Shown one piece after another: positions 35,849 through 41,440 of a stretch of 64,000 nucleotides of DNA. Below the pieces are notes generated by a model that searched no databases, was not told where the DNA came from, and saw only the letters and a list, made by a program, of their open reading frames with translations. The translations under genes and the position numbers were made by a program. This DNA comes from a virus (taxonomy: Duplodnaviria > Heunggongvirae > Uroviricota > Caudoviricetes). The stretch lies in IMG/VR virus record IMGVR_UViG_3300045988_003495; one strand, written 5' to 3'. How positions within the stretch are numbered: position 1 is the first letter of the stretch; the number at the start of each line of letters is the position of its first letter.

Positions 35849-35924
35849 TCTCTGTTTAGCTCAGCTTGGTAGAGCGTTCCGTTTGGGGCGGTAAGGCCGG
35901 AGGTTCAATTCCTCCAACAGAGAC
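35849..35924 (+). tRNA. tRNA-Pro (anticodon TGG)
   Basis: Manual fold: acceptor tctctgt/acagaga, T-arm ggagg-ttcaatt-cctcc, anticodon loop tttgggg. Confidence 0.65.
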
Positions 35925-35933
35925 CAAATTAAT

Positions 35934-36008
35934 GTTCCAGTAGACAAAATGGTATAGTCACCACTCTTTCAAAGTGGATATTTGAGGGTTCAAATCCCTT
36001 CTGGAACG
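35934..36008 (+). tRNA. tRNA-Glu (anticodon TTC)
   Basis: Acceptor gttccag/ctggaac, T-loop ttcaaat, anticodon stem-loop ccact-ctttcaa-agtgg; CCA encoded. Confidence 0.65.
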
Positions 36009-36103
36009 CCAGTTTTGACAGAAGACCAATTACAGCAAACTTAATCTTATTCATCTGAAGGTAAATCGGACAAAGAAGAGATTTGGTCTGGTCATTAAGA
36101 ATT

Positions 36104-36176
36104 GCGGGTATAGAGAAAGGGCGTCTCACATGTCTCATTAGCATGGTATCGGCAGGTTCGACTCCTGCACCCGCCT
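36104..36176 (+). tRNA. tRNA with CAT anticodon (Met or Ile2)
   Basis: T-arm gcagg-ttcgact-cctgc; anticodon loop ctcatta; acceptor pairing imperfect at the 5' end. Confidence 0.45.
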
Positions 36177-36256
36177 CCAAATTTACAGAAGACCGTATGC
36201 AGCAACAAACTACTTTTTGCGGATAAAAGAAAAAACACGGTCTGGCAATGTATTAA

Positions 36257-36330
36257 GGTTAGGAAGCACATAAGGTATGTGCGGTCGCCTGTTAAGCGAA
36301 TGGCACAGGGTTCGAATCCCTGACTAACCG
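36257..36330 (+). tRNA. tRNA-Asn (anticodon GTT)
   Basis: Anticodon loop ctgttaa; T-arm caggg-ttcgaat-ccctg; CCA encoded. Confidence 0.65.
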
Positions 36331-36342
36331 CCAAATTTAAAT

Positions 36343-36427
36343 GTGTCGTTATCCCGTAGATGGTAGCGGTGGGGACTGTAAATCCCTTGTCATTGAGACT
36401 CGGTAGGTTCGACTCCTACACGGCACA
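36343..36427 (+). tRNA. tRNA-Tyr (anticodon GTA), long variable arm
   Basis: 85 nt; anticodon stem-loop gggga-ctgtaaa-tccct; T-arm gtagg-ttcgact-cctac. Confidence 0.65.
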
Positions 36428-36452
36428 CCAACACTTAGCGAGATACTTAGTT

Positions 36453-36854
36453 ATGAGAGATGAAGTATACAAATCACAACTTGGTATGAGTTTGGGAACT
36501 GCACAAAACAGACTAGTAAAAGATTTGCTATTCGATTTTATATGTAAGACAAATCAAAATAGATGTTTTCAGTGCGGAAAAGAAATGACTAGGGATGATT
36601 TCTCTATCGAGCATAAGACTCCGTGGAGACACAAAGATAATGCAAAAGAACTTTTCTTTTCACTAGATAACATTTCTTATAGCCACCTGCGTTGCAACAT
36701 GAAAGCAGCCAGACCAGCACAGATTTATGATAGAAAGCCTAAGCCAATTAAACACGGCACTGCACACAGCTACTCTAAAGGTTGCAGATGTGATGAGTGT
36801 AGGCTGGCTAAGAATGCTGAGGGTAGGAAGCACTATAACCCCAGAAAGGCGTAG
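36453..36854 (+). CDS. HNH homing endonuclease inside the tRNA cluster
   Basis: CFQCGKEM...FSIEHKTPW...SHLRCNMKAA...CRCDEC; ORF track start 36360 overlaps tRNA-Tyr, in-frame ATG at 36453 is the likelier start. Confidence 0.6.
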   Translation: MRDEVYKSQLGMSLGTAQNRLVKDLLFDFICKTNQNRCFQCGKEMTRDDFSIEHKTPWRHKDNAKELFFSLDNISYSHLRCNMKAARPAQIYDRKPKPIKHGTAHSYSKGCRCDECRLAKNAEGRKHYNPRKA

Positions 36855-36886
36855 GAAGAAGTATTTAAGAAATGGCACATAGTTTT

Positions 36887-36959
36887 GGGGTATTAGTTTA
36901 GACGGTGAAAATACGGGATTATCTCTCCTGAGCCGCGAGTTCGATTCTCACATACCTCG
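36887..36959 (+). tRNA. tRNA with atypical anticodon loop (ttatctc, apparent anticodon ATC; Asp-like?)
   Basis: Good acceptor (ggggtat/atacctc), D-arm and T-arm (gcgag-ttcgatt-ctcac), but A34 and T37 are unusual; Asp is otherwise absent from the cluster. Confidence 0.4.
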
Positions 36960-37110
36960 CCAATTTTGAGAGGGCTATTTAGCCCCTCCCTTAAAGAGTT
37001 CTTACGAGTATCCTTTAAAGGAGCAGAAGACCAAATACAGCAAGTTACTTAAAATTTCAAGCCAATTCAATTTTGAAAAATTTAAAACTTGGTCTGGCTC
37101 AACAAATTTA

Positions 37111-37242
37111 CAGAAGACCGTTTACAGCAAAACTTAAACAATCTATTTCTCGGTAAAGAAAAGGCGAAGGTTCGATTCCTTCACTCGGCAGATGTCGAGT
37201 TGGTGTAATGGTAGCACTTAAGATGATAAACAACGGTCTGGT
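37111..37242 (+). ncRNA. circularly permuted tRNA-like module enclosed by an AGACCGTT/AACGGTCT helix (candidate Y-RNA-like RNA)
   Basis: Order along the strand: T-arm gaagg-ttcgatt-ccttc (37166-37182), acceptor-like hairpin actcggc-agat-gtcgagt (37183-37200), tg, D-arm-like gtgtaatggtagcac (37203-37217); 8-bp closing helix 37115-37122 with 37232-37239. Confidence 0.35.
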
Positions 37243-37392
37243 AATTATCTTTGCAGTAGCTTATGTGGCTAATTATGTCGTCCCATGAGTGCCGATGAAT
37301 TTCCTTAGCATGATTCTAGATTAGCTTAGTAGGAAATGACTCTACAGACCCTTTAGCAAGGTCTGCGTAGGTTACTGCAAAGGCAATTTAAT

Positions 37393-37465
37393 GGAAGTGT
37401 AGCAGAATGGTGATGCGGCAGACTTTTAATCTGACAGGCGATGGGTTCGAATCCCTCCACTTCTA
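37393..37465 (+). tRNA. tRNA-Lys (anticodon TTT)
   Basis: Acceptor ggaagtg/cacttct, anticodon loop cttttaa, T-loop ttcgaat (short T-stem), CCA encoded. Confidence 0.6.
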
Positions 37466-37472
37466 CCAAAAT

Positions 37473-37546
37473 GGTTCAGTCGCAGATAAGGTAATGCAGG
37501 GGTCTCATAAGCCCTATGAATGTGGGTTCGATTCCCATCTGAACCT
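37473..37546 (+). tRNA. tRNA with CAT anticodon (Met or Ile2)
   Basis: Acceptor ggttcag/ctgaacc, anticodon loop ctcataa, T-arm gtggg-ttcgatt-cccat, CCA encoded. Confidence 0.6.
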
Positions 37547-37551
37547 CCAAT

Positions 37552-37623
37552 TGTGGGTTAGCATAAATGGTAATGCAAACGGCTGATAACCGTTAGAAGA
37601 GGGTTCGATACCCTCACCTACAA
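37552..37623 (+). tRNA. tRNA-Ile (anticodon GAT)
   Basis: D-arm gcat-aaatggta-atgc, anticodon stem-loop aacgg-ctgataa-ccgtt, T-arm gaggg-ttcgata-ccctc, CCA encoded. Confidence 0.7.
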
Positions 37624-37641
37624 CCAATTTCAATAAAGTTG

Positions 37642-37670
37642 TTGACATTGATACGTGACTACTTTATAGT
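37642..37670 (+). promoter_or_regulatory. sigma70-like internal promoter in the tRNA cluster
   Basis: TTGACA, 17-nt spacer, TATAGT. Confidence 0.5.
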
Positions 37671-37874
37671 AACCTTAGTTTTCGTTGCGTAGCGTCTATT
37701 TTGCAAATTTAAAATAAATGCAAACGACAATGTTTTTCTGGCAGTAGCTTGATAGGCTAAACACCAGTGAGGTCTTCCAATCCCTCATCAAAGAATTTGG
37801 CGTACTAGCCCACGGTATGATTAATAAGGTGGGCATCTTTAAGGGCTTTCTAAGAGAGTCTTTAAAGATAATTA

Positions 37875-37953
37875 CGGGGCGTATCTCAGCTGTCTTCTAA
37901 ACAGCCGTTAACCGAGTAAGTGGAGTATGCGGGTTCGAGTCCTGCCGCCTCGA
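37875..37953 (+). tRNA. tRNA-like gene, internal arms atypical (possible anticodon TCT, Arg)
   Basis: Clear acceptor (cggggcg/cgcctcg) and T-arm (gcggg-ttcgagt-cctgc) with CCA; gctgt-cttctaa-acagc hairpin would give TCT but leaves no room for a normal D-arm. Confidence 0.35.
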
Positions 37954-38099
37954 CCAATTTAGTTAGCAGATTACTTAGACGACCTAAGCGGGTCTTCCTG
38001 TAGGGAGGTGGTCTGTATCTCATGTTTTCCAGAACATGTAAATAATCTGAGAAGGGGCTTTACAGTGTTGCGAAAATACGGTAAGCTTCGAATTATAGT

Positions 38100-38179
38100 G
38101 TGGGACGATGTTAAGACTCTAAGGCATGAGCAACGGCCTCCAAAACCGTTTCAAAGGGGTTCAACTCCTCCGTCCCATG
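38100..38179 (+). tRNA. tRNA-like gene, possible Trp (anticodon CCA), 80 nt
   Basis: Acceptor gtgggac/gtcccat, T-loop ttcaact, anticodon loop candidate ctccaaa; D-arm region longer than standard. Confidence 0.4.
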
Positions 38180-38195
38180 CCAAAGTCTTATTAGG

Positions 38196-38283
38196 GGTAG
38201 GTAGCGGCTAATGGCAGCCAAACAGTCTTGAAAACTGTTGCCACTGTAGAGATACGGTGAGGGTTCGACTCCTTTACTTACCG
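38196..38283 (+). tRNA. tRNA-Ser (anticodon TGA), long variable arm
   Basis: 88 nt; anticodon stem-loop acagt-cttgaaa-actgt; variable arm about 20 nt; T-loop ttcgact. Confidence 0.65.
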
Positions 38284-38541
38284 CCTAATAAGATTTAAAG
38301 CCAAGCTTCATTCGGATGTTGCTTTGGTATCCCTCGTGTATTGTCGTACACGCACAGTAAAGCACCTAGTAGGTGTCACGGAGAAGAGATAATATCAAGC
38401 TCTCCAAAGGTTCTAGTCACCGGATTAAACAAGACTATGCAAAGACCAAATTAGGTCTTTTTAGAGGGCTTCTAAGGTTATTACAGCTTGTTGTGGAACC
38501 TTGTTGCTTAGGTTCTTAGAAGTTCTCTAAAAAGATTTAAT

Positions 38542-38616
38542 GGGAGATTGACGGTAATTGGTAAACCTACCATCCTTAGAAGTTGGTGTTTGAGGGTTCG
38601 AATCCCTTGTCTCCTA
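38542..38616 (+). tRNA. tRNA with anticodon TAG (Leu-type anticodon on a short-variable-arm scaffold)
   Basis: Acceptor gggagat/gtctcct, anticodon loop cttagaa, T-arm gaggg-ttcgaat-ccctt, A73, CCA encoded; 75 nt. Confidence 0.45.
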
Positions 38617-38626
38617 CCAAATTAAT

Positions 38627-38699
38627 GCAGGTGTAGCAAAATGGTTATGCGGCTGACTCTTAATCAGTAAGACGATGGGTTCAATTCCCTCCACCTGTA
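38627..38699 (+). tRNA. tRNA-Lys (anticodon CTT)
   Basis: Anticodon stem-loop gctga-ctcttaa-tcagt; T-loop ttcaatt; CCA encoded. Confidence 0.65.
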
Positions 38700-38708
38700 C
38701 CAAACATT

Positions 38709-38781
38709 GGGGATGTAGTTTACATGGTTAAAACATAAGTTTTGCAAACTTAAGTACAGGGTTCAATTCCCTGCTTCTCCA
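38709..38781 (+). tRNA. tRNA-Ala (anticodon TGC)
   Basis: Anticodon stem-loop taagt-tttgcaa-actta; T-arm caggg-ttcaatt-ccctg; CCA encoded. Confidence 0.65.
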
Positions 38782-38790
38782 CCAATTAGT

Positions 38791-38862
38791 GCATCCATAG
38801 TTTAAACGGGAAAATTACAGTCTTCCAAACTGAGGTTGAGGGTTCGATTCCCTCTGGATGCT
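38791..38862 (+). tRNA. tRNA-Gly (anticodon TCC)
   Basis: Acceptor gcatcca/tggatgc; anticodon loop cttccaa; T-arm gaggg-ttcgatt-ccctc; CCA encoded. Confidence 0.65.
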
Positions 38863-38872
38863 CCAAATTAAT

Positions 38873-38945
38873 GCTCCTATCGTATAATTGGCTATTACGG
38901 TTGCCTTGTAAGCAACTTATCAGGGTTCGAATCCTTGTGGGAGCA
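38873..38945 (+). tRNA. tRNA-Thr (anticodon TGT)
   Basis: Anticodon stem-loop gttgc-cttgtaa-gcaac; T-arm caggg-ttcgaat-ccttg; CCA encoded. Confidence 0.7.
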
Positions 38946-39034
38946 CCAATTCAGAGGCCAAGTGAAAGACCGCTGGTGTCAACTGAAGACCGTAACAAAT
39001 TCCACGGAGTTGAGTTAGCGGCACAACTTCAGAC

Positions 39035-39106
39035 CTCTTTCATACTCGCTTAGTTTATATGGTAAAACACCACCCTTACAAGATGAAGAAAAAGGTTCAA
39101 GTCCTT
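39035..39106 (+). tRNA. tRNA, probable Val (anticodon TAC)
   Basis: Acceptor actcgct/agtgagt, T-arm aaagg-ttcaagt-ccttt, anticodon loop cttacaa with two mismatches in the anticodon stem. Confidence 0.45.
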
Positions 39107-39110
39107 TAGT

Positions 39111-39185
39111 GAGTACCATGTTCCAGTATCCCAATTGGCAGAGGATGCAAGCTCAAACCTTGTACTAGTGACGGTTCGAATCCGT
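39111..39185 (+). tRNA. tRNA with anticodon CAA (Leu-type anticodon, short variable arm)
   Basis: Acceptor gttccag/ttggaac, anticodon stem-loop gcaag-ctcaaac-cttgt, T-arm gacgg-ttcgaat-ccgtc, A73, CCA encoded. Confidence 0.5.
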
Positions 39186-39193
39186 CTTGGAAC

Positions 39194-39266
39194 ACCAATT
39201 TTGCAGGATTAGTTCAAATGGATAGAGCAACAGTCTACGAAGCTGTTAATAGGGGTTCGAATCCCT
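39194..39266 (+). tRNA. tRNA-Arg (anticodon ACG)
   Basis: Anticodon stem-loop acagt-ctacgaa-gctgt; T-arm agggg-ttcgaat-ccctt; CCA encoded. Confidence 0.7.
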
Positions 39267-39297
39267 TATCCTGCGCCAATTTAAAGAGGCTATTTAG

Positions 39298-39855
39298 ATG
39301 AGATATTTGAAGTATGCTTCATGGATTTTCCTAGCTTTACTAGAACCATTTGCAGCAACCCTAGCAGTCATCTTAGCACCTTTCGTAGTTCCATTCTACA
39401 GTGAGAAGAAAGGGCATCTACCTTTTGGATTCAGATGGATGGAGACCTATGACAACCCGATTGATGGTGATGAAGGCCACGTTAAAAGATGGGCTAAGAT
39501 TAGAAAGATTGGTAAGCTGGGTGTCTACATGCAGAGAGTCGGATGGCTCTGGAGAAACAAAGCTTATAACTTCTCTTACCATGTATTAGGAAGAGATGTA
39601 AAAGATGTTACTAAGTGGAAAGGTAATATCAACGTAAGTTCTGACCCTGAAGATAATCAGACTGGTTATCTCCTAATGTGGAATAGCAATGCTTGGGGAT
39701 TATTTGCTTTTATCCCATCAATTAAAGTCTTTGGTAAACAGTTTTACTGGAGAATTTATATTGGATGGAAACTAAAAAGCGTTGTCCCAGAAGAAAGAGC
39801 ATTCTCAAGGGAAAGAGTTATGTTGGCATTCTTTATTCATCCACTGAGAAAGTAA
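39298..39855 (+). CDS. hypothetical membrane protein encoded inside the tRNA cluster
   Basis: 185 aa; N-terminal hydrophobic region (WIFLALLEPFAATLAVILAPFVVPF); Trp-rich. Confidence 0.35.
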   Translation: MRYLKYASWIFLALLEPFAATLAVILAPFVVPFYSEKKGHLPFGFRWMETYDNPIDGDEGHVKRWAKIRKIGKLGVYMQRVGWLWRNKAYNFSYHVLGRDVKDVTKWKGNINVSSDPEDNQTGYLLMWNSNAWGLFAFIPSIKVFGKQFYWRIYIGWKLKSVVPEERAFSRERVMLAFFIHPLRK

Positions 39856-39863
39856 AGATTTAA

Positions 39864-39936
39864 AGGGGATTAGTTTACAAGGTTAAAACCTCGGTCTTTG
39901 AAATCGAAGAAGTTGGTTCAATTCCAACATCCCCCA
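39864..39936 (+). tRNA. tRNA-Gln (anticodon TTG)
   Basis: Anticodon stem-loop tcggt-ctttgaa-atcga; T-arm gttgg-ttcaatt-ccaac; A1-C72 mismatch; CCA encoded. Confidence 0.6.
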
Positions 39937-39941
39937 CCAAT

Positions 39942-40017
39942 GCTCCATTACTCCAATTGGCAGAGAGGCCAGACTTAAAATCTGTGTTATGTATCGGTTC
40001 GAATCCGATATGGAGTA
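39942..40017 (+). tRNA. tRNA with anticodon TAA (Leu-type anticodon, short variable arm)
   Basis: Acceptor gctccat/atggagt, anticodon stem-loop ccaga-cttaaaa-tctgt, T-arm atcgg-ttcgaat-ccgat, A73, CCA encoded. Confidence 0.5.
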
Positions 40018-40027
40018 CCAAATTTAG

Positions 40028-40100
40028 CGGTATAGCATAACTGGCAATGCAACAGTCTCTGAAGCTGTCCTATTAAGGTTCAAATCCTTATGCCGCTGCC
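40028..40100 (+). tRNA. tRNA-Gln (anticodon CTG)
   Basis: D-arm gcat-aactggca-atgc; anticodon stem-loop acagt-ctctgaa-gctgt; T-arm taagg-ttcaaat-cctta; CCA encoded. Confidence 0.6.
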
Positions 40101-40133
40101 ACTTCTAAGGGTTCTTACGAGAGTCCTTAAATG

Positions 40134-40206
40134 TGGCCTTATCATAAACGGTAATGACCTATGCTGTGAACATGGTCTATGCGGGTTCAAATCCCGTAGG
40201 TCACCC
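40134..40206 (+). tRNA. tRNA-His (anticodon GTG)
   Basis: Anticodon stem-loop ctatg-ctgtgaa-catgg; T-arm gcggg-ttcaaat-cccgt; discriminator C73; CCA encoded. Confidence 0.65.
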
Positions 40207-40215
40207 CAATTTATA

Positions 40216-40289
40216 GTCCAAGTAGCTTATATGGTTAAAGCGCGTGTCTGAAAAACATGAGAAGAGGGTTCAAATCCCACTGGACTACC
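40216..40289 (+). tRNA. tRNA-Phe (anticodon GAA)
   Basis: Acceptor tagtcca/tggacta; anticodon stem-loop cgtgt-ctgaaaa-acatg; T-loop ttcaaat. Confidence 0.55.
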
Positions 40290-40307
40290 AATTTCAAAGG
40301 TGCTTAA

Positions 40308-41041
40308 TGAAAGAGATGACAGAACAAGGTAAGGAGATTTTTAATCTCTTAAAAACCGGTAAAGGGTTTTCTAACCCACTTATTACTGGTGCAGCAGTTC
40401 TCGGTGGAACCGTAGCTGCCTCTACATCACTTGTAAACTCTATTAGTTCTGTAACAGACCCTACAATGAAGGATAAACTTGTTGCTGCTGGACTTACAAC
40501 AGTCCTTCTAAACAGCTTTACAACAAGCCTGACAAGCACTACAGCAACTACTAAGACCCTAACAGACTATGGTCAAAAATCTATTGATGAGTTTTCATCA
40601 CGTATGCAGGTAGCAAAGGGATACTCCAATGTTATGGGTGCAGCAGGAGAACAAGTTGGTTGTACACCATTCAGTGGTATTATGGGTGTTGCTACAGAGT
40701 ATGGTCAGCAAGCTATTGACACTATTAATAATGCACTAGATGGCGTTAACGATGTATTAAGTGACTTACAAGATGCTATTGATAAGGGTCTTGATACTGT
40801 TTCTGATTTAGCTAACCAAGCTGTTAGTAAGATTAATGAAGGTATCTCAAAGATTACAGCTTATGCAGATGAAGTTGTGCAGATGATTGAAGAAGAAGCT
40901 GCCCTTATTGCAGAGTACCTTAAAACGAATATCAATGGGTTCTTAGCAGGTATCTTACCAGACTGGTTTGATGATGCTTGTAAAACTGGTGTAATTGACA
41001 CTATTGCAACACCAGAAATGAAGAACGCATTACAGAAATAA
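40308..41041 (+). CDS. hypothetical Ser/Thr-rich protein
   Basis: ORF track start 40244 overlaps tRNA-Phe; ATG at 40308 (MKEMTEQGKE) is the likelier start. Confidence 0.4.
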
Positions 41042-41042
41042 T

Positions 41043-41132
41043 GGAAGATTAACCCTAAAAGGTAAGGGAGCAGTTTGCTAAACTGCCAGTAGCTGAGAAA
41101 TCGGTGTACCAGTTCAAGTCTGGTATCTTCCT
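41043..41132 (+). tRNA. tRNA-Ser (anticodon GCT), long variable arm
   Basis: 90 nt; anticodon stem-loop gcagt-ttgctaa-actgc; T-arm accag-ttcaagt-ctggt; CCA encoded. Confidence 0.7.
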
Positions 41133-41140
41133 CCAATTTT

Positions 41141-41213
41141 GAATCCGTGACAGAAATGGATATGTGCCTGTCTGCAAAACAGGTTTATAAGGGTTCAAGT
41201 CCCTTCGGATTCT
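41141..41213 (+). tRNA. tRNA-Cys (anticodon GCA)
   Basis: Anticodon stem-loop cctgt-ctgcaaa-acagg; T-arm aaggg-ttcaagt-ccctt; CCA encoded. Confidence 0.7.
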
Positions 41214-41255
41214 CCAAGTTATTTTACTCTCTCTCTCAATTAAAATAATAATAAT

Positions 41256-41316: not shown

Positions 41317-41440
41317 CAGAGTTATACTTTATAGGAAGACTTATACAGTATGTCTCTGACGTACATTGTGGTTTCTCCTTGACGGTCTCTGTGCCGTCTT
41401 TTTTAAGGGGAAACAAGATTAATTATTTGGAGAAAACATA

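Follow-up and report, generated by a model that had tools for sequence, protein, structure and literature searches.

Three tRNA-Leu genes without a long variable arm in the tRNA cluster of a Felix O1-like phage

The stretch of viral DNA analyzed here (64,000 nucleotides (nt), IMG/VR record IMGVR_UViG_3300045988_003495, Caudoviricetes; hereafter the window) belongs to a Felix O1-like phage and carries, within a cluster of tRNA genes, three tRNAs with the leucine-type anticodons UAG, CAA and UAA whose variable regions consist of only 5-7 unpaired nt. Judging from their sequences and from those of their relatives, we estimate a probability of roughly 0.85 that the three are functional, phage-encoded leucine isoacceptors that the host's leucyl-tRNA synthetase (LeuRS) would charge. 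The genes are already known and annotated, and the mechanism is an ordinary one, i.e., supplementary decoding of leucine codons. The compact scaffold on which they are built is a widespread and conserved class and not an oddity of this phage.

Structure of the three genes

The three genes occupy the following positions:

38542-38619, + strand, tRNA-Leu(UAG), 75 nt to the discriminator and 78 nt with the encoded CCA; anticodon at 38577-38579; ARAGORN, Rfam 40.0 bits
39120-39197 (39120-39194 without CCA), + strand, tRNA-Leu(CAA), 75 nt, 78 nt with CCA; anticodon at 39154-39156; ARAGORN, Rfam 43.6 bits
39942-40020, + strand, tRNA-Leu(UAA), 76 nt, 79 nt with CCA; anticodon at 39976-39978; ARAGORN, Rfam 47.5 bits

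All three score above the gathering score of 29 of the Rfam tRNA family RF00005 (E = 5.5e-6 to 4.6e-8) and share its cloverleaf, with a 7-base-pair (bp) acceptor stem, a 5-bp anticodon stem closing a 7-nt loop, and a 5-bp T stem with a loop of the GUUCRANYC type; in each, A73 is followed by an encoded CCA. The anticodon loops read CUUAGAA (UAG), CUCAAAC (CAA) and CUUAAAA (UAA). The variable loops are UGUUU in the UAG species (5 nt, 38587-38591), ACUAGU in the CAA species (6 nt, 39164-39169) and GUUAUGU in the UAA species (7 nt, 39986-39992), all of them stemless and short of the stem-loop of more than 10 nt that marks a type II variable arm. The D-arm, by contrast, is of the type II design in the CAA and UAA species, both of which have an 11-nt D-loop, C-AAUUGGCAGA, on a 3-bp D-stem. 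The UAG species has a 4-bp D-stem with one bulged base, C11, and the D-loop U-AAUUGGUAAA. When aligned to the covariance model of compact tRNA-Leu described below, its extra length is accounted for by this 1-nt bulge and not by the variable loop, while the UAA and CAA species exceed the model by two bases and one base, respectively, both in the variable loop. Single mismatches interrupt the anticodon stem of the UAG species (U30.U40) and sit atop that of the UAA species (C27.U43).

The first-pass annotation, in which these tRNAs were folded by hand, had reported three tRNAs with the Leu anticodons TAG, CAA and TAA, which ARAGORN, Rfam and the compact-Leu covariance model all recovered; the anticodon loops, the lengths of 75-76 nt, the variable regions of 5-7 nt and the common A73 are likewise as it described them. 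Automated predictors, chosen beforehand as a test that could overturn the call, returned the same anticodons and assigned the Leu isotype. The positions given for the TAG and TAA genes were right, but the CAA gene had been placed at 39111-39185, 9 nt too far upstream; that stretch overlaps the 3' end of a tRNA-Val gene (39044-39118) and yields no tRNA fold. Apart from this slip, the suspicion that the manual folds might be wrong is refuted.

Thermodynamic folding of each tRNA on its own did not return the cloverleaf (z-scores of -0.3 to -1.6), which lies 3.6-6.8 kcal/mol above the minimum-energy fold in the phage tRNAs, compared with 9.3 kcal/mol for the genuine E. coli leuW in a hand-drawn structure. 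We rejected this result as evidence against function, given that a genuine tRNA-Leu fares worse and that covariation (see below) is the relevant test.

Familiar tRNA-Leu genes differ from those of the window chiefly in the arm. E. coli leuW, leuX and leuZ measure 85-87 nt, the T4 gene 87 nt and the T5 gene 85 nt, with a variable stem-loop of 13-15 nt in place of the 5-7 unpaired nt found here, whereas the anticodons, the discriminator and the D-arm design are the same (E. coli leuW has the D-loop A-AAUUGGUAGA, the T4 tRNA-Leu A-AAUUGGUAAA), and the decoding role is presumably the same as well. The earlier remark that bacterial tRNA-Leu normally has a long arm thus holds for E. coli, T4 and T5 but is not universal, since compact bacterial genes also exist (see below).

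Leucine identity without the variable arm

In E. coli, leucine identity resides in A73, U8:A14, A15:U48, G18G19, A20a, G18:U55, G19-C56 and U54:A58 (PMC9976931). According to the review by Giege and Eriani, this identity requires neither the long variable arm nor the anticodon, and variants from which the arm was deleted are still charged (PMC9976931). The arm is therefore dispensable for an E. coli-type LeuRS, of which it is not an identity element, and can be lost. In line with this, the review, citing Larkin et al. (2002) and Asahara et al. (1993, 1998), summarizes engineered arm-deleted or minimalist E. coli tRNA-Leu molecules as LeuRS substrates as long as A73 and the D/T-loop core are intact (PMC9976931); as summarized there, their design is exactly that of the window genes, but they are laboratory constructs assayed in vitro. 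A natural armless tRNA-Leu is known from human mitochondria, where the identity of tRNA-Leu(UUR) depends on A73 and A14 (PMC9976931). Animal mitochondrial tRNA-Leu is nevertheless unlike the phage genes, as it belongs to another translation system with another synthetase, has a loose and mismatch-rich structure, and shows no evident sequence kinship with them.

All of the E. coli identity bases listed above are present in the sequences of the three window genes, the tertiary pairs being deduced from the bases that would form them. The D regions read UAUCCCAAUUGGCAGAGGAU, UACUCCAAUUGGCAGAGAGG and UGACGGUAAUUGGUAAACCUA. U is the last base of each variable loop, and U54, U55, C56 and A58 are supplied by the T-loop UUCGAAU. 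A strict 20-nt D-region signature is matched by the CAA and UAA species and is missed by the UAG species solely through its 1-nt bulge. Additionally, the three anticodons fit the NAG/YAA pattern of leucine, a feature that sets the decoding role and not the identity.

How far this signature discriminates leucine tRNAs was assessed in three collections of loci. Among the matches listed for viral loci chosen with a compact-Leu search pattern (see below), it occurs in 149 of 173 compact tRNA-Leu, 18 of 30 long-arm tRNA-Leu and 10 of 1101 non-Leu tRNAs. Viral loci anchored on tRNA-Arg(TCT) gave 6/6 compact Leu, 19/30 long-arm Leu and 1/373 non-Leu tRNAs. In bacterial loci the signature was found, among the matches listed, in 134 of 153 compact tRNA-Leu and in none of 217 non-Leu tRNAs, and no long-arm tRNA-Leu was found there.

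These figures bear on a reading that the first-pass annotation had also raised, namely that the type I scaffold causes the three tRNAs to be charged with an amino acid other than leucine, such that UUA, UUG or CUA would be recoded in phage proteins. Short variable loops are indeed typical of non-Leu tRNAs, A73 is common to several other isotypes, and in Shigella phage Sf14 the UAG species scores 65.7 with the Ile2 model, 63.4 with Lys and 60.0 with Arg, close to its Leu score of 67.4. However, the full LeuRS signature is present in the window genes and occurs in about 1% or less of non-Leu tRNAs, and compact tRNAs were found, among the matches listed, with each of the six Leu anticodons and with none besides. 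None of the determinants of other synthetases that were looked for occurs in the three sequences (G3:U70, C35, U35, G35, C36, U36 and G34-A35-A36), a check that covered the anticodon bases for Val, Ile, Met, Phe, Lys, Arg and Thr and relied on the identity sets in PMC9976931 and partly on established background. Furthermore, about half of the leucine codons of the phage would be mistranslated, and competition from host tRNA-Leu would yield a mixed proteome. We therefore regard charging with another amino acid as extremely improbable.

The leucine assignment is shared by the relatives: in a 2025 study of Sf14, tRNAscan-SE isotype scoring placed Leu on top for each of the three genes (Leu_TAG, 67.4; Leu_CAA, 49.1; Leu_TAA, 60.2; PMC12482277). 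The predictors, these isotype scores, the covariance model and the LeuRS identity elements all support the reading as compact Leu isoacceptors.

A widespread class of compact tRNA-Leu

A search pattern that demands a short variable region together with the D-loop and an anticodon of Leu was run on IMG/VR contigs and on bacterial genomes. It matched at least 120 IMG/VR contigs, and ARAGORN called, among the matches listed, 176 tRNA-Leu genes of at most 80 nt in 118 of these viral loci, the Ser tRNAs of the same loci always measuring 84-96 nt. The compact form is thus present in at least 118 viral contigs that are unrelated. Fifty-four of the listed compact genes fall outside the search pattern itself and nonetheless have A73 (48/54) and U48 (48/54) and cover all six Leu anticodons. 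In a phage sample assembled independently of Leu, with tRNA-Arg(UCU) as the anchor, 6 of 37 Leu tRNAs are compact, in 3 loci, and 31 of 37 have the long arm, in 26 loci; with 37 Leu tRNAs and six compact ones, this sample is small and gives a rough estimate of frequency.

The same pattern returned at least 120 matches in bacterial genomes. Among those listed are 13 tRNA arrays whose Leu tRNAs are all compact and whose Ser and Tyr tRNAs are long-armed; arrays of this kind, with only compact Leu beside long-arm Ser and Tyr, were observed in cyanobacteria, Acidobacteria and Micromonospora. A further 91 of the listed loci hold a solitary compact tRNA-Leu, which in 80 of the 91 is a near-invariant 74-nt tRNA-Leu(UAA) with a 5-nt variable loop, found among the listed matches in Mycobacterium, Nocardia, Gordonia, Rhodococcus, Arthrobacter, Rothia and relatives; in Bifidobacterium, the solitary gene has the anticodon CAA. 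Synteny of the flanks of the actinobacterial gene is partial, with one conserved neighbor across three Micrococcales genera, the loci from other genera covering different sides of the gene. Both the array genes and the actinobacterial ones resemble those of the window in their variable loop of 5-6 nt, their 3-bp D-stem, their N-AAUUGG-YA-RA loop and their U8, U48 and A73. They differ in being GC-rich and cellular, and many are solitary Leu(UAA) genes that look vertically inherited, whereas the window genes are AT-richer and phage-borne, have loops of 6 and 7 nt in two cases, and encode CCA.

Across these hundreds of phage and bacterial genes, among the matches listed, the compact design is found with all six Leu anticodons and with no others. 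Long arms are found, in the window cluster and in every survey, on the tRNAs for Ser and Tyr, whose synthetases make use of them. The class provides a natural confirmation of the biochemical finding that bacterial LeuRS needs no arm.

Covariation within the class was examined in a gapless alignment of 114 compact Leu tRNAs with less than 80% pairwise identity, none of them from an Ounavirinae phage. U8, U48 and A73, none of which had been imposed by the search pattern, are invariant in all 114. Standard pairs fill 98.6% of the pair cells of the armless cloverleaf, compared with 56.5% in shuffles and 36-46% in slid controls, double-sided changes number 928 against 238 in shuffles, and covariation is seen in 19 of 20 pairs. 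These figures are evidence that selection maintains the class as tRNA. The covariance model built from this alignment ranks the three window genes on top among the tRNAs of the cluster, with 71.7 bits for UAA, 69.2 for CAA and 60.1 for UAG (E = 1e-18 for the last), and all three share the armless cloverleaf, the Leu D-arm, U8, U48 and A73 of the class.

Arm length itself varies in some of the phage genes surveyed. Some phage Leu(UAG) genes have a 9-nt variable region, UCUUCGGGU, that looks like the stub of an arm, and several phage Tyr tRNAs are just 79-83 nt long (viral contigs L009, L029 and L032); arm shortening in phage type II tRNAs may therefore be graded and not all-or-none.

The class has been little discussed. 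The literature searched yielded no systematic description of armless tRNA-Leu and none of the variable arm of phage-encoded tRNA-Leu. The Sf14 paper never mentions the variable arm (PMC12482277), the annotations of the relatives are equally silent on its absence, and a survey of tRNA arrays does not discuss arm length (PMC4758250). Isolated members have been noticed, such as a short-loop tRNA-Leu(TAG) in a mycobacterial tRNA cluster that also holds an HNH endonuclease gene (PMC6582537), and in M. tuberculosis only tRNA-Leu-2, -3 and -5 are described as long-looped (PMC11541572). Recent papers still define tRNA-Leu by its long arm, among them a structural study from 2025 (PMC12360207). The existence of the class explains why isotype models of the tRNAscan type sometimes flag such genes as pseudogenes or as 'OTHER'. 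Armless tRNA-Leu is to be expected by annotators and by those who analyze tRNA sequencing data, although it matters little for the window itself.

Codon demand and proposed decoding role

The window has a GC content of 38.8%. In its 54 long open reading frames (ORFs; 14,252 codons), leucine is encoded by TTA (26.5%), CTT (28.3%), CTA (11.6%), TTG (13.4%) and CTG (14.3%), whereas the corresponding fractions in E. coli are approximately 13%, 10%, 4%, 13% and 50%. In the comparison of codon usage that the first-pass annotation had suggested, TTA and CTA are thus enriched over the host and TTG is not. In agreement with this, TTA and CTA are significantly enriched in Sf14 relative to its host and TTG is not (PMC12482277).

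On the proposed reading, the three genes would be transcribed with the rest of the cluster and processed, and host LeuRS would charge all three with leucine, which the retention of A73, U8:A14, A15:U48, G18G19 in the Leu register, A20a and the T-loop partners should make possible. The UAA species would then decode UUA, the CAA species UUG, and the UAG species CUA together with other CUN codons, possibly including CUU and CUG if its U34 is modified as in the host. The phage would in this way add decoding capacity for codons that are far more frequent in its AT-rich genes than in those of the host and that are served there by minor tRNAs. Expression, leucylation and a benefit to translation are steps that we infer, whereas the analysis shows the genes themselves, their cloverleaf and identity signature, the biased codon usage, and a class whose members are conserved and covary.

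Several observations weigh against this reading. TTG is not enriched in the phage over the host, and simple codon compensation therefore fails to explain the CAA species. The presence of A37 instead of G37 in the UAG species and of C38 in the CAA species implies anticodon-loop modifications unlike those of the host counterparts. With its bulged D-stem and its U.U mismatch, the UAG species is the weakest of the three and structurally the most irregular, and the compact-Leu model places it just 1.6 bits above the tRNA-Glu of the cluster (58.5 bits). Without the arm, tRNA bound Aquifex LeuRS with lower affinity (PMC2377443), and in crystal structures the C-terminal domain of LeuRS is reported to contact the variable arm (PMC12360207); for both reasons, the compact forms may be poorer substrates. 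Finally, one tRNAscan-based record, that of AYO145A, labels the UAG gene 'tRNA-Pseudo-TAG'.

Related phages and maintenance of the UAG species

Over the region compared, the window is 96-97% identical to coliphages JH2, bumzen, AYO145A and many others; this region is matched in 349 phage records, of which 214 cover at least 80% of the query, and many of these public records contain identical or nearly identical genes under the name tRNA-Leu. The layout of the tRNA cluster is syntenic with that of AYO145A, bumzen and Mordin. With the exception of the UAG label just mentioned, the same three genes are annotated as tRNA-Leu in AYO145A (KR014248), bumzen (MN850635) and Mordin (KT363872), and the orthologues in Felixounavirus and Mooglevirus (bumzen, AYO145A, Mordin and Sf14) occupy the same slots of the syntenic cluster and are identical to the window genes or 1 nt apart. 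All three genes recur in Citrobacter phage Mordin, a Mooglevirus, whose UAG species matches that of the window exactly.

The anticodon stem of the UAG species (38570-38586) varies in an instructive manner. It reads CCAUC/GUUGG in the window and in Mordin and UCUCG/CGAGA in bumzen and AYO145A, so that all five pairs differ and the strands still pair. That the window matches Mordin here and not bumzen or AYO145A, its closest relatives over the whole region, points to a mosaic exchange of single tRNA genes, or of parts of them, within the cluster. At pair 29-41 of the UAG species, the window has A-U where EASG3 and PVP-SE1 have G-C, and these distant phages share the U30.U40 mismatch. Taken together, the exchanged stem, the compensatory change at 29-41 and the conserved mismatch indicate, at the level of sequence, a maintained structure and not decay.

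This pattern bears on the possibility that one or more of the three species, most plausibly UAG, has become a pseudogene in decay, neither charged nor used any longer. Such decay would fit the 'tRNA-Pseudo-TAG' label, which derives from tRNAscan-SE, the bulged C11 and the U30.U40 mismatch, the lowest scores of the three with both Rfam (40.0) and the compact-Leu model (60.1), and the degenerate tRNA-like remnants that lie in the same cluster at 37875-37953 and 38101-38177 (see below). Nevertheless, the anticodon stem shows compensatory replacement, the mismatch itself is conserved across distant phages, and A73, CCA, the T-loop, U8, A14, A15, G18G19, A20a and U48 of the UAG gene are intact across Felixounavirus and Mooglevirus. 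Homologues are found in T5-like phages and in PVP-SE1, and among the tRNAscan isotypes of the Sf14 orthologue Leu scores highest. We thus consider a pseudogene very unlikely and favor three functional isoacceptors.

More distant phages combine compact and long-arm genes in several ways. PVP-SE1 has one compact and one long-arm Leu, and Kolesnikvirus SB18 has three compact ones. In the T5-like phage EASG3, a compact Leu(UAG) lies beside tRNA-Ala, in the slot that the 85-nt gene occupies in T5. A simple deletion of the arm from a T5-type gene was considered and rejected as its origin, because all stems differ, which indicates gene replacement.

Possible causes of arm loss

The arm may have been lost neutrally, as LeuRS permits, or through compaction, to avoid cross-recognition by the Ser and Tyr systems, or to escape toxins. 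In the last case the armless scaffold would be adaptive in addition to its decoding role, evading host toxins or defense enzymes that recognize the type II arm while remaining chargeable by LeuRS, and the phage Leu tRNAs would sustain translation when those of the host are inactivated. MenT-type nucleotidyltransferases exemplify toxins directed at the arm, and tRNA-Leu was modified once the orientation of its arm had been adjusted (PMC11541572). Additionally, compact Leu genes are enriched in mobile contexts, i.e., phages and horizontally acquired tRNA arrays, the slot of Leu(UAG) in T5-like phages is filled by a long-arm gene in some and by a compact one in others, and anticodon-loop changes in these same tRNAs have been tied to nuclease resistance in the Sf14 study (PMC12482277). 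Conversely, E. coli and Salmonella are not known to have an arm-directed toxin that acts on tRNA-Leu, and 31 of the 37 Leu tRNAs in the Leu-independent phage sample still have their arm. Because the phage Ser and Tyr tRNAs keep their arms and would remain vulnerable, and because Actinobacteria use a compact tRNA-Leu(UAA) encoded in the chromosome, where immune evasion would be senseless, we consider evasion unlikely as an explanation of the armless scaffold. If true, it would represent a structural form of immune evasion at the level of the tRNA, distinct from the known anticodon-loop changes and based on genes that circulate among phages and arrays.

Other elements of the tRNA cluster

The remaining features of the cluster and its surroundings are as follows:

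35850..41216, + strand, tRNA gene cluster, 25 tRNAs called by ARAGORN, all on the + strand
36343-36430, + strand, tRNA-Tyr, type II, variable arm of 15 nt
38196-38285, + strand, tRNA-Ser(tga), type II, variable arm of 20 nt
41043-41135, + strand, tRNA-Ser(gct), type II, variable arm of 21 nt
35703, 35794 and 37642, promoter-like sites, consensus matches
41381-41398, terminator-like hairpin, consensus match

The tRNAs are separated in places by small ORFs and by one HNH-like ORF. Expression of the cluster is plausible in view of its tight arrangement on the + strand and its encoded CCA ends, with promoter- and terminator-like sites present at chance frequency; the scan for such sites found overall no more of them than expected by chance, and they are not used as evidence of expression.

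The HNH-like ORF (approximately 133 amino acids, 36454-36854) lies between tRNA-Tyr and tRNA-Asp, just before the latter, at a point where the two genes are only about 10 nt apart in the relatives. The tRNA-Asp called by ARAGORN at 36887-36962 has the anticodon ATC in an unusual loop, UUAUCUC, with A34 and a pyrimidine at 37, and the Asp(GTC) genes found in AYO145A, bumzen and Mordin have a very different body. It could represent a tRNA, divergent or disabled, whose state is tied to the insertion of a homing endonuclease.

Two tRNA-like elements on the + strand lack a gene call. The first, at 37875-37953, was missed by ARAGORN and falls below the Rfam gathering score; it resembles the tRNA-Arg(TCT) of T5 and PVP-SE1 in its acceptor stem, T arm, A73-CCA and CUUCUAA loop. 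It is without a D arm and has an insert of about 20 nt after the anticodon stem, and the compact-Leu model gives it 26.4 bits. Probably it is what is left, after rearrangement, of the Arg(TCT) gene present at the same position in Mordin and Sf14. The second, at 38101-38177, has an anticodon arm like that of the Kolesnikvirus SB18 tRNA-Trp(CCA), with the loop CUCCAAA. Its D region of 22 nt is aberrant, two bases separate the acceptor stem from CCA, and its score with the same model is 17.1 bits.

The tRNA-Glu(TTC) at 35934-36011, the top non-Leu match of the compact-Leu model with 58.5 bits, shares several features with the leucine genes. The 5' strand of its acceptor stem, GUUCCAG, is identical to that of tRNA-Leu(CAA), and it has a 3-bp D-stem with a loop of 11 nt and a variable loop of 6 nt whose last base is U, but its discriminator is G73. 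In the Sf14 study, tRNA-Glu(TTC) is listed among the tRNAs that are inconsistent with their predicted isotype (PMC12482277).

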